Of a stretch of DNA of 63,866 bases, positions 51,213-54,215 are shown piece after piece. The DNA lies in the NCBI GenBank assembly GCA_965644265.1, contig OZ286471.1:76136001-76199866 (forward strand), given 5' to 3'. The translations under genes were made by a program, and so were the position numbers. The stretch's first letter is position 1, and the number at the start of each line of letters is the position of its first letter. The DNA comes from Glycera tridactyla (Eukaryota). The notes beneath the pieces are model-generated. The model did not search any database and was not told where the DNA came from. It worked only from the letters and a program-made list of their open reading frames with translations.

Positions 51213-52893
51213 GATAATATTGACAATAACCCTTTTTGAGCCGAGGTTTTCCCTGCTTGTTCATATTTTGTTTGGAAGAAAAAGGTTCCGAAGTGTCAGG
51301 AGATTTTAAAGCTTTTTGATGAAGAACCATGTGAAAAGTATCCCAGGGAAAAGGAGTTAGCATTTGTGATCTTAAGCTACGAAAGTTTTCATCGTAGAAG
51401 ATGAAGTTACCCCCTTGAGAGTCAATCTCACGTATTTCGGCTACGTATGCTAGGAGTTGACTACCTTCCTTAGCTTTCTGATCCTGTGACTTCAAGGGGT
51501 GTTGGTTATAGATATTCTGGAAGACTAAGAATGCTTGATCCCAATCATGGATGTTGCGAATGGATTTTTTCCTTTTGGCTAGGACAAATTGTCCCGTTTT
51601 GCCGTCTACTACATAATGGTGGTGATGAATTTTTTCCTGCTGTAAAAGATCAGCCAGATCTATGTACTTGTCCTGCCATATACTGATACGTGTGTCAAGA
51701 TCCACGTTAAATCCTATAGGAAGACCACCCGTTACTACTGAACGAGAGCAGGGGTCAGTACGTAAACCTATTTCTTCGTCAGAGAGACCGATGCGTATAG
51801 AATTAAATGGTGAAACAGCGTGTGTCGCTAAAGTACCGGATTCTGCAGGGTCTCTGAGACCAAGCTCGTTAGCTGCGGAATGCAGCGAGTGAGATAAAGA
51901 AAGGTCACGAACGTTCTTGCCCTTGCGCATCCTTTCCAAAATTAGATTAATGGATAGGTTATCATCCACAATGGACCCAGCTGCTCTAAAAGGAGCAGAA
52001 GGTTGAGAAGGATGTGAAGGGGCAGGAAAAGAAAAACCTATGTTCGAGCCTACTTTATCGGAGGTAGTAGAGGTAGAGTTAACGTTGGCGTTAGAAAAAA
52101 CAGTATTGGTCGTATTCGGTCTCCCATGCCCTGAGTTCCCCGATAAATGAGGTTGCCAAAGGTTGGGTCTAGGGTTTAAGCGTTCATCTGTATCTCTAGT
52201 AAATAAACCCGTGTTTGAAGGTTGAAAGTTCGAATTCATACCTTGAGAAGATGGAGGGGAAAGGTCAGGCGACCTTTGAAACGTATGTTGTTGCGGCCAG
52301 GCGGCTGAACTGTCGAGCTTATGCTGTAAGTTTTGGAGGACGGAATTCATATTAGCCATGTGCTGCTTAGCCATGTCCATGGTGGTTCTGATGTCCTCAC
52401 GCATGTCCTGTATAGATTGCTGCGACGAAGAAAGAGTGGGATTAGACATAGTAACAGTGGGATAAGAGCAGTTCCCGTTTGAGACCAAAGGAGGCCGAAC
52501 ATTTTGAGCAAAGGAGTTATTGTAAGGTGAATTAGCCACCGGTCTTCCTATGCCATTGATAAATGGACGATTTTGCATGGAACAGGCTCTTACTGAAGCT
52601 GATCGCAGATCATTCATCTTTGGTCCCATGTTTGGCTGAGAAACATTAGGAGCAGTCGCTCCACGTTGCGATAAAGGAGTAGGATTGATCCTTTGTCCAC
52701 AAGGAATTTGGCTGATGTTATCGTCAATGGATGACACGACAGGCGTCGTGCTATTGGATAGCAGTTCAGTAAATGGATCGTAGTTTACCTGAGGCATTTG
52801 TGAGACGAAGGGAGAACCATCAGGTGGCTGAGTCAAGGCAGCAGGCTTCTTCCGTACCATGGGGTAATCATCGACAGCATGTCTTTTCGCCAT
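51028..52893 (-). CDS. Gag-like ORF with C-terminal Cys/His zinc-binding motifs
   Basis: Long P/S/N/Q-rich N-terminus, IW..KYIDL..LL and W..AFLVF segments, then C..YH...C...C.FKH.C..C.GKH....C. First ATG is at 52893; the ORF track starts at a TTG at 52899. Confidence 0.85.
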   Translation of the reverse strand: MAKRHAVDDYPMVRKKPAALTQPPDGSPFVSQMPQVNYDPFTELLSNSTTPVVSSIDDNISQIPCGQRINPTPLSQRGATAPNVSQPNMGPKMNDLRSASVRACSMQNRPFINGIGRPVANSPYNNSFAQNVRPPLVSNGNCSYPTVTMSNPTLSSSQQSIQDMREDIRTTMDMAKQHMANMNSVLQNLQHKLDSSAAWPQQHTFQRSPDLSPPSSQGMNSNFQPSNTGLFTRDTDERLNPRPNLWQPHLSGNSGHGRPNTTNTVFSNANVNSTSTTSDKVGSNIGFSFPAPSHPSQPSAPFRAAGSIVDDNLSINLILERMRKGKNVRDLSLSHSLHSAANELGLRDPAESGTLATHAVSPFNSIRIGLSDEEIGLRTDPCSRSVVTGGLPIGFNVDLDTRISIWQDKYIDLADLLQQEKIHHHHYVVDGKTGQFVLAKRKKSIRNIHDWDQAFLVFQNIYNQHPLKSQDQKAKEGSQLLAYVAEIREIDSQGGNFIFYDENFRSLRSQMLTPFPWDTFHMVLHQKALKSPDTSEPFSSKQNMNKQGKPRLKKGYCQYYHANDKKCMFPKCTFKHYCPNCNGKHPVYLCRSDGSSGTDKSDNGKRPSVSNSDPGQSSVTK

Positions 52894-53107
52894 CTGCAAA
52901 GTATGATGTACGAGCCAGAAAAAGAAATAAAAATAAAAATAAAATCGAAATCTAAATTAGAAAAATTAAATCGAGAAAGAAATAAAAACGAATTCAGCAA
53001 CGACAGACGTCGTTACAAACGATAATTAAAAGAAAAATGATCCATCCCTCCCCCCTCCCCCCTCCCTACCCTCCCTCGTCAAAGTCGTAAGGTCGCTCAC
53101 TTTCGAC

Positions 53108-53893
53108 TCAGAAATAACATGGAAGGCCACGAACAACGCGACCTAGGTTAGGTATGCTTGTCAAAGCGGCTTGCCTCATTTCTTTTGTATATCTTTCAAA
53201 GGCTTTTGTGTGTTTCTCTGGGTGAATCCAGTCCCGGCTCCAGGTCTTGACCATTGAGGGAGCGCCTGGCATTAATGAACCGAAACCTCGTACATGATAG
53301 AAATCGATTGCATTTGCGCTCGAACACAATAGCTCGGTTTGTTTGTTGAATGTAACTGCTCGAGCTCGGAAATCGAAGTGACCTATAAGTCTATCGATGC
53401 ATGACATCAAGACAACGATCTTGACTTTACAAGCTTTGCGAATTTTAACTGCTAAGTTAAAGTAATCATAAGCTAAAGCTTCAGGATCCACGTTGAAACG
53501 AGTAAGATCGTTACTCCCAAGGTTAATCACCAAAAGGTCAGGTTTGAGTACCGCTAATGCTAGAATTTCGTCGGCTATGTCCTCTGCATCGTCATAGTCA
53601 TTGATATAGACCACGTGTCTGAAGTTTACAGTGCTAAAAGTATCGTCTAAGTCAAGGAGGTTGGCATTTAGTTGTCCACGTGAAACGTTGCCAGAATCTA
53701 TTTCTTTATGCAAACCTGAATGAATCATGCGTTCCAAAAGTACATCCTCTTGCTGACGAGTAAAAGAATGTCCGAGAATACACGCAGTTGGAAGCCGGCC
53801 AAGCCATTGCTCTATAGGTACGAAGGGTGTTTTCCCGTGAAACCAGGCCATGATGAAATGTATCAGAAAAACAAAGCGCGTTCCGCCTACCAT
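53108..53893 (-). CDS. SGNH/GDSL hydrolase-like ORF carried by the retrotransposon (261 aa from the ATG at 53893)
   Basis: Block I ILGHSF, block III INLGSNDL, block V DWIHP. The ATG lies immediately after the A1 repeat. Confidence 0.8.
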   Translation of the reverse strand: MVGGTRFVFLIHFIMAWFHGKTPFVPIEQWLGRLPTACILGHSFTRQQEDVLLERMIHSGLHKEIDSGNVSRGQLNANLLDLDDTFSTVNFRHVVYINDYDDAEDIADEILALAVLKPDLLVINLGSNDLTRFNVDPEALAYDYFNLAVKIRKACKVKIVVLMSCIDRLIGHFDFRARAVTFNKQTELLCSSANAIDFYHVRGFGSLMPGAPSMVKTWSRDWIHPEKHTKAFERYTKEMRQAALTSIPNLGRVVRGLPCYF

Positions 53894-54215
53894 GCAATCT
53901 AATCGAAAGTGAGACCGAGATACAGTCGACGCCACGTTATATACCCCACGGCAGCGCCCTCTACATAGTCAAAATCTGAAACAAAATTCTTTAAATGAAA
54001 CATTTTGTAACAAACAATTACAAATACAAAAAGGTAGAAGGTTCGCTAATGGTACGTAAATTCTAAATTGTTTGAAGAAGGAATCCGAGAGAAAAACGAG
54101 AGAGGAGAACCACCCCCCTCCTCTCAAACATGATCACGTGATCTAACCAGTTCTCTCGGTCACGTGTTTCTGCTCCAATTTACGAAAAATTTATTTTTAA
54201 ATAAAAATATGATTT
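53894..54215 (-). repeat. Split direct repeat A1 (322 bp), 5' end of the element
   Basis: Direct copy of 47593-47914. Confidence 0.95.
53903..53943 (-). promoter_or_regulatory. Candidate Pol II core promoter in repeat A (TATA plus Inr), TSS about 53910
   Basis: Minus-strand TATATAA (53943-53937) lies 33 nt upstream of the A in TCACTTT (YYANWYY). Two CACGTG E-boxes lie further upstream in A. No transcript data. Confidence 0.55.

Follow-up and report, generated by a model that had tools for sequence, protein, structure and literature searches.

Among retrotransposons that carry a tyrosine recombinase (YR), the hydrolase-bearing, Ngaro-like elements DIRS-53_XT and DIRS-54_XT of Xenopus have their hydrolase open reading frame (ORF) placed after YR, and within the main text of the report that describes them neither "splic" nor "intron" occurs (PMC9210276). 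For Ngaro elements, a quotation in PMC13003380 has Poulter and Butler (2015) giving ribosomal frameshifting as the probable route to YR. Here we describe an intact YR retrotransposon of 7.3 kb from Glycera tridactyla, located on the minus strand of a stretch of 63,866 nucleotides (nt) of contig OZ286471.1 (assembly GCA_965644265.1, positions 76,136,001 to 76,199,866). This whole stretch is called the window, and positions are counted from its first letter. The SGNH hydrolase locus forms the 5' end of the element and is followed by gag-like, reverse transcriptase/RNase H (RT/RH) and tyrosine recombinase ORFs, giving the layout A1-SGNH-gag-RT/RH-YR-B1-A2-B2, where A and B are direct repeats. We consider it likely that alternative splicing of a single transcript sets which protein is made, with SGNH held in a spliced-out first intron and the front of Gag joined to YR. 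No report of a 5' intronic SGNH ORF, or of Ngaro or DIRS elements that are natively spliced, was found in the open-access literature searched, and the accessible portions of PMC9341512, PMC12477816 and PMC6681497 contain nothing on Ngaro/DIRS native splicing or a 5' intronic SGNH.

Intron 1 and the SGNH hydrolase

Intron 1 (52894..53890, minus strand) is 997 nt long, has GT-AG ends and encloses the entire SGNH coding region. It had been predicted in a preliminary description made from the sequence of the window, and the motifs named there are all in place: TATATAA at 53943-53937, TCACTTT with its A at 53910, an ATG at 53893-53891 followed by GTAGGC, a donor (D1) whose first base is 53890, and a U-rich tract with the acceptor TTTGCAG (52894..53040, minus strand) that ends at 52894 and abuts the gag ATG at 52893. 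The reading frames agree as well, since unspliced RNA would read into a 261-amino-acid (aa) SGNH ORF and spliced RNA into a single Met plus the 621-aa Gag.

The RNA-like data are contigs assembled from four of five listed runs, including X1 (study P1), X5 (study P2), X2 and X3; the run type is recorded as "RNA?" or "?", and the runs were taken as RNA by inference. Contigs of X1 and X5 (2 of 4 runs, from two studies) contain the predicted junction from 53891 to 52893, a joint that skips the 997 nt, whose ends read CT..AC, or GT..AG when taken on the minus strand, and places the U-rich tract and gag acceptor among the signals used in RNA. It is one of five joints in the contigs, from donors D1, D2, D3, D4 and D5, all of them GT-AG. 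In the assembly, intron 1 is kept at all 11 gag starts of at least 94% identity (24/24 candidates scored), and at least 11 close copies of the element are present (40 of 91 candidates scored). Because the five joints are GT-AG and all close genomic copies carry intron 1, we read the joint as RNA, and its GT-AG ends, pyrimidine tract and exact removal in RNA mark intron 1 as U2-type. An X5 contig (53461-53920) runs unspliced over D1. A further joint in X3, 53194/53900, has TT..TC ends and was not accepted as a splice; compared by eye, its loose end agrees with the related family L046, which points to an unspliced relative.

Conservation was followed in 71 elements, namely 70 further copies and that of the window. 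These were picked by SGNH similarity, and other element layouts may occur in the genome, which holds 2029 SGNH candidates (150 of them scored) in many diverged families. Thirty-three of the 71 had four open ORFs and the other 38 were left out; clustering at 90% RT identity then gave 20 representatives, with identities of 51-90% in RT and 30-87% in gag, and 18 of these were kept, L102 and L130 being removed because their gag frame was broken or mis-assigned. In 17/18 representatives a TATA-like box and D1 are 53-55 nt apart, the donor of the eighteenth being recognised by eye, and D1 follows the end of A1 by 1-7 nt where that end can be placed. In 18/18 representatives the gag ATG is preceded, at a distance of 0-3 nt, by the end of a YAG; the same holds for 58 of 283 ATGs internal to gag and for 12 of 127 SGNH ATGs. 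Conservation of both splice sites, which the preliminary description had named as a check, therefore extends across 18 families, and SGNH precedes gag in the window and in the copies mapped. Because D1 and the gag acceptor are kept over diverged families, the SGNH-in-intron layout is both old and selected, and since SGNH is wholly intronic, the sites are conserved and the splice is seen, retention or removal of intron 1 would separate SGNH messages from Gag messages.

The idea that one start codon serves both proteins fared worse. ATG stands directly before the donor (ATG|GT) in 12 of the 67 copies with a donor found, L103 and L129 having been removed from this donor count, and in 1/18 representatives, the others having GAG|GT, AAG|GT or CAG|GT. 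The copies with ATG form one nested clade (support 0.995), and judged from these sequences the codon at the donor is derived within that clade and needless for the switch. The predicted splice switch accordingly stands as far as SGNH lies inside a spliced, conserved intron and falls as far as a shared start codon was to be the general mechanism. All 18 representatives have a strong-context SGNH ATG inside the intron (Met15, 53851, in the window). There, the first ATG (53893) has a weak context, with T at -3, whereas a purine at -3 and a G at +4 flank both the gag ATG and the SGNH ATG within the intron. Because of that weak context, and by scanning rules, SGNH and Gag may start at different codons even in the window element.

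The SGNH/GDSL hydrolase ORF (53108..53893, minus strand) encodes 261 aa from the clade-specific ATG or 247 aa from the conserved ATG at 53851, with GHS, GSND and DxxH motifs. Its Pfam match, PF13472 at E=1.3e-6, is under the curated cut-off, and a predicted model (pLDDT 63) matches PAF-acetylhydrolase and GDSL enzymes with a best E of 6.5e-4. Atlas matches are GDSL clusters, commonest in Mollusca, and serve as a lead only. A short-word search returned no SGNH homologs at E 1e-5, and a PDB sequence search none at E 0.01. Among representatives, GHS is kept in 18/18, GSND in 15/18 and DxxHP in 17/18; the ORF is open in 66 of 71 copies, and in five of five pairs nonsynonymous divergence (dN) is 0.17-0.29 with synonymous divergence (dS) saturated. 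Because the ORF stays open, dN is low against saturated dS and the catalytic motifs are kept, SGNH is a maintained gene with an SGNH fold; ester hydrolysis is predicted, and by analogy the esterase may act in membrane handling.

Splicing from gag to the recombinase and reverse transcriptase

The gag-like ORF (51028..52893, minus strand, 621 aa) has a low-complexity N-terminus, a predicted coiled coil at about aa 159-195, a conserved core and a Cys/His zinc-finger-like end; it is labelled gag by position and motifs, with no Pfam gag match. The contigs reveal further splices beyond the single one of the preliminary description, above all a Gag-YR fusion. Intron 2 (52420..52788, minus strand, 369 nt), seen in X1 and X5, removes 123 gag codons in frame, and its donor D2 is present in 6/18 representatives. 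Intron 3 (49566..52241, minus strand, 2676 nt), whose joint is also in X1 and X5, begins at D3, a donor in phase 1 within gag, and ends at the YR acceptor, and its removal sets Gag(1-218) in frame with YR to give 555 aa, or 432 aa when intron 2 is also out; a single 337-nt X5 contig has introns 1, 2 and 3 all removed. Intron 4 (49566..51004, minus strand, 1439 nt; X2 and X5) joins D4, 23 nt past the gag stop, to the same YR acceptor, taking out RT/RH and leaving gag whole. Intron 5 (47675..49395, minus strand, 1721 nt; X1, X2 and X3) runs from D5 within YR, a donor found in 9/18 representatives, to an acceptor in the A repeat and shortens YR. With their patchy conservation, D2 and D5 may be by-products or host control.

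The sites that produce the fusion are far more constant. D3 reads AG|GTA in phase 1 in 18/18 representatives, compared with 7 of 464 other Gly codons, and sits just after the coiled-coil-like helix, where gag is least conserved (median identity 17%). At the YR acceptor 17/18 have YAG, always as a CAG Gln codon, CAG being used at 102 of 270 such positions elsewhere in RT. A strong D4-type donor follows the gag stop by 23-32 nt in 16/18 representatives. Nonsense-mediated decay obeys a 50-nt rule, and because D4 lies only 23-32 nt past the stop, the gag message would be spared. When 147 RT/YR homologs were searched with a profile built from the N-terminus and coil of Gag, no fusion turned up.

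The tyrosine recombinase ORF (48553..49575, minus strand, 340 aa) lies in frame -1 to RT with a 94-nt overlap, and its only early ATG falls within the acceptor signal. Pfam PF02899/PF00589 score below cut-off; there are 27 YR-like homologs, most with PF00589, and the motifs HSFRIG and GRW...Y can be read directly in the sequence. Every representative has YR at -1 to RT with an overlap of 94-157 nt (18/18), and only 5/18 have a Met within the first 7 YR codons, the first Met otherwise lying 29-137 codons in. No canonical -1 slippery heptamer occurs in the RT/YR overlap of any of the 18 representatives.

The RT/RNase H ORF (49482..51212, minus strand) encodes 576 aa from its first ATG in a frame that is open from 51260 and +1 to gag, with an RVT_1 match at E=1.3e-9; among representatives the first Met ranges from codon 1 to codon 242. 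A candidate RT acceptor, the CAG at 51122..51124 (minus strand), is in phase 1 of the RT frame and is the predicted partner of D3. A phase-1 YAG is found at this place, the zinc-finger end of gag, in 15/18 families; in the remaining three such a site lies some 24 nt further upstream. Within a 50-nt interval chosen after looking, a phase-1 site is present in 18/18 and sites of the other phases in 1 and 0, compared with at most 11/18 in 96 control interval-phase pairs. The RT region 49784-50811 is without contig coverage in 4/4 runs. Gene models P0124 (YR) and P0091 (RT) have long low-complexity N-termini without the gag core, and from their sequences look like Gag-type fusions.

Promoter, repeats and surroundings

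The TATA box and the initiator-like motif together form a predicted promoter (53906..53943, minus strand) with conserved spacing, and a TATA/initiator promoter at the A1 end is plausible. A transcription start near 53910, as earlier proposed, agrees with the conservation of both motifs, yet the junction contigs carry 29-30 nt of upstream exon, to 53919-53920. Because this exon extends past 53910, at least the molecules behind these contigs started upstream of the initiator; host read-through, scatter of start sites or a circle could each be responsible. The contig ends at 47622, 53920 and 53923 are artefacts of assembly, each some 30 nt away from a branch point, and give no reading of the start site. 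Just upstream of the TATA box, at about 53963-53952 of the window, all families have a conserved AGAGGGCGC / AGGGGGCGC / AGATGGCGC motif, which appears to resemble the core of a CTCF site.

The A repeat contains an acceptor, at 53976 in A1 and 47675 in A2, that lies upstream of the TATA box, and an acceptor-like site was recognised by eye in the A repeat of 18/18 representatives. Between the AG ending at 53976 and D1, A1 contains an 85-nt exon (53891..53975, minus strand), and this acceptor is used in X1, X2 and X3. The copy in A2 may define the last exon, so that the RNA ends in B2 and not at the identical signal in B1, and the copy in A1 can trap host transcripts. Foreign sequences of 136 nt and 250 nt, likely host exons, are joined to element acceptors, namely the gag acceptor 52894 (X1) and the A-repeat acceptor 47675 (X5). 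In X1, the four joints that link the segments 53975-53891, 52893-52789, 52419-52242 and 49565-49396 close a 538-nt cycle in the contig graph, possibly a back-spliced circle; A1 and A2 are identical in sequence and hence indistinguishable in contigs.

The repeats have the arrangement A1...B1-A2-B2, with a 322-nt A pair and a 660-nt B pair, each without mismatch and all on the minus strand. A1 (53894..54215) is a split direct repeat whose end falls 1 nt ahead of the first ATG and 3 nt ahead of D1, and A2 (47593..47914) is identical to it; B1 (47911..48570) has AATAAA at 48053, and the identical B2 (46879..47538) has it at 47021. The B1|A2 joint has 4 nt in common with both element ends. An RT/RNase H ORF and a tyrosine recombinase are present, as in the order DIRS, which is defined also by the absence of a DDE integrase, and none of the four ORFs matches an integrase family. 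A Pfam search gave no methyltransferase match after RNase H, a lack that sets Ngaro-like elements apart from PAT-like and DIRS-like ones, the RT ORF ending about 36 aa past the RNase H end motif, and neither inverted terminal repeats nor an internal complementary region (ICR) as in DIRS-1 was found, the element ends being direct repeats only. On structure alone, that is split repeats, absence of a methyltransferase and YR at -1 over the RT end, the element appears Ngaro-like; the RT homologs retrieved are unnamed or "uncharacterized".

Among other copies, L051-L059 show no target duplication at the element ends, where the terminal 3-4 nt differ around an AAAT core that the B1|A2 joint has too, a pattern in keeping with insertion by a recombinase. 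L035 and L036 (C29:45.01-45.02 Mb) belong to one family; these SGNH-gag starts are separated by 5.1 kb and the first is truncated, which points to a tandem or nested insertion. In L092 (1925-5395) and L130 (2929-5268) a single open frame spans gag and RT, probably through single frameshifting indels. Elsewhere in the window there are two separate 111-nt satellite arrays (16038-17314 and 23823-25929), arrays of a 30-nt unit (21994-23513 and 34079-34495) and three dispersed copies of a 188-nt repeat (10645-10832, 27130-27317 and 40629-40816), 71-82% alike and possibly a short element.

Alternative explanations and comparison with known systems

Intron 1, four more GT-AG joints, the frames and the conservation of the sites are observed or computed, and alternative splicing of one transcript would draw them together as follows. 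The TATA/initiator promoter at the A1 end would give one pre-mRNA. Unspliced, this RNA would be the sole full-length copying template and would be scanned to the strong intronic ATG to yield SGNH. Removal of intron 1 would yield Gag, and the additional joining of D4 to the YR acceptor a Gag message without RT. Joining D3 to the YR acceptor would produce Gag(1-218)-YR, a fusion that retains the predicted coiled coil and might assemble together with Gag, and joining D3 to the acceptor at 51122 is predicted to produce Gag(1-218)-RT. The broader proposal, that an entire lineage of Ngaro elements runs all four proteins from one promoter by nothing but splicing, with a shared gag donor attaching the Gag coiled-coil module to RT or YR, we regard as evenly balanced. 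If true, this four-protein plan inverts the retroviral one and couples the packaged genome to an enzyme that handles lipids. An esterase in a retained first intron suggests timing, as it would be made only from unspliced, genome-length RNA. The defined Gag-YR products of 555 and 432 aa provide a testable alternative to frameshifting for Ngaro YR, and stand-alone ORF annotation of YR, perhaps also of RT, would be wrong for a large family, given the SGNH candidates counted above.

Several points weigh against the splicing scheme. Unspliced contigs could be pre-mRNA or DNA, and the junction contigs extend upstream of the initiator; because of this, and of the foreign exons at acceptors, part or most of the RNA may stem from host read-through into a copy. 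The most-spliced path, with introns 1, 2, 3 and 5 removed, encodes a 156-aa dead end. The evidence is at the level of RNA, as assembled contigs that give neither strand nor 5' ends nor the ratio of isoforms; the joints come from one family, and use of the sites in other families is predicted from sequence, in L046 for example with donors at 938 and 2603 and exon starts at 1933, 3729 and 5285. Since the families are related, the family counts are not independent, and D3 was located via a protein alignment that favours its Gly. As to RT, the join from D3 is absent from the contigs of 4/4 runs, and the acceptor was assessed in an interval chosen post hoc, with 3/18 families lacking that exact AG.

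It is unlikely that translation of SGNH and of Gag alike begins at ATG 53893, and that the sharing of this codon is itself the switch. The codon is in frame with both products and present in 11/11 close copies, but it is missing from 17/18 representatives, belongs to one derived clade and has a weak context (T at -3), and in the close copy L008 the frame no longer runs from one ATG to the other, although its 247-aa ORF is intact. Quite improbable, too, is the suggestion that the splices are by-products, arising from exonised copies in host introns or from host over-splicing for silencing. The foreign exons at two acceptors and the start of the junction contigs upstream of the initiator would fit with this, as would the D5 splice, which ruins YR and is the deepest in X1, and the occurrence of D2 and D5 in only 6/18 and 9/18 representatives. 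However, the donors D1 and D3 and the acceptors of gag and YR are fixed in place and phase over deeply diverged families, codon choice at the sites is forced past protein needs, and most YR ORFs are without a usable start. For D2, D5 and the foreign exons, an origin as by-products may well hold.

The Ngaro view in print, extended to YR from a programmed -1 frameshift, RT by recoding from gag and splicing for gag only, is as a whole very unlikely to apply here. The -1 position of YR with its 94-157 nt overlap, in 18/18, is as quoted in PMC13003380, the RT frame is +1 to gag and open over about 200 nt or more of overlap, and no RT splice is seen; against this, the Gag-YR joint occurs in two studies, a canonical slippery site is found in 0/18 representatives, and the open +1 frame can follow from the residue make-up of the zinc fingers. 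For RT specifically, recoding is quite possible. An origin of the joints in DNA, from processed intron-less genomic copies, is extremely improbable: the run type is not recorded as RNA, retroelements can copy spliced RNA and the sequenced individuals may differ from the assembly, but 11/11 close gag starts keep intron 1, and intron-less copies would themselves prove splicing.

Retroviral env is made from a spliced message. ORF3 products of long terminal repeat (LTR) retrotransposons, including rotifer GDSL ORF3s, are likewise expressed from spliced messages (PMC5408684). With these the present element would share, as far as the accessible text describes them, one promoter, a 5' donor, a downstream acceptor and an unspliced RNA that is the genome; it is their inverse in that the accessory esterase lies on the unspliced RNA and Gag needs splicing. 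In the Ty1/Copia element EVD of Arabidopsis, conserved alternative splicing sets the ratio of structural to catalytic protein (PMC5580714), and D4 here yields a comparable gag-only message; EVD is by contrast an LTR element with one intron, and its abstract describes neither an accessory gene in the first intron nor spliced enzyme fusions. The SGNH esterase in ORF1p of the non-LTR element ZfL2-1 hydrolyses esters and binds liposomes (PMC3905857). In both, an SGNH enzyme comes first in a retroelement, though the class differs, no PDB sequence match is found at E 0.01, and a common function is an analogy.

Among YR elements, the preliminary description had pointed to Dictyostelium DIRS-1 as a precedent for splicing past a first ORF. 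DIRS-1 is a YR retrotransposon with overlapping ORFs, like the element of the window, and differs in its inverted repeats plus ICR and its methyltransferase; the precedent was not found, the accessible portions of PMC7192593 and PMC5633606 mentioning only an artificial reporter intron and no native ORF1 splicing. The start of YR overlaps the RT/RH end in the -1 frame, as in the Ngaro model quoted above, and unlike that model, which invokes a frameshift, the contigs show a Gag-YR splice. As far as they are described, DIRS-53_XT and DIRS-54_XT share with our element the A1...B1-A2-B2 repeats, gag, RT/RH, YR, an SGNH ORF and the absence of a methyltransferase; unlike theirs, which follows YR, the SGNH ORF of Glycera tridactyla comes first and lies in an intron.

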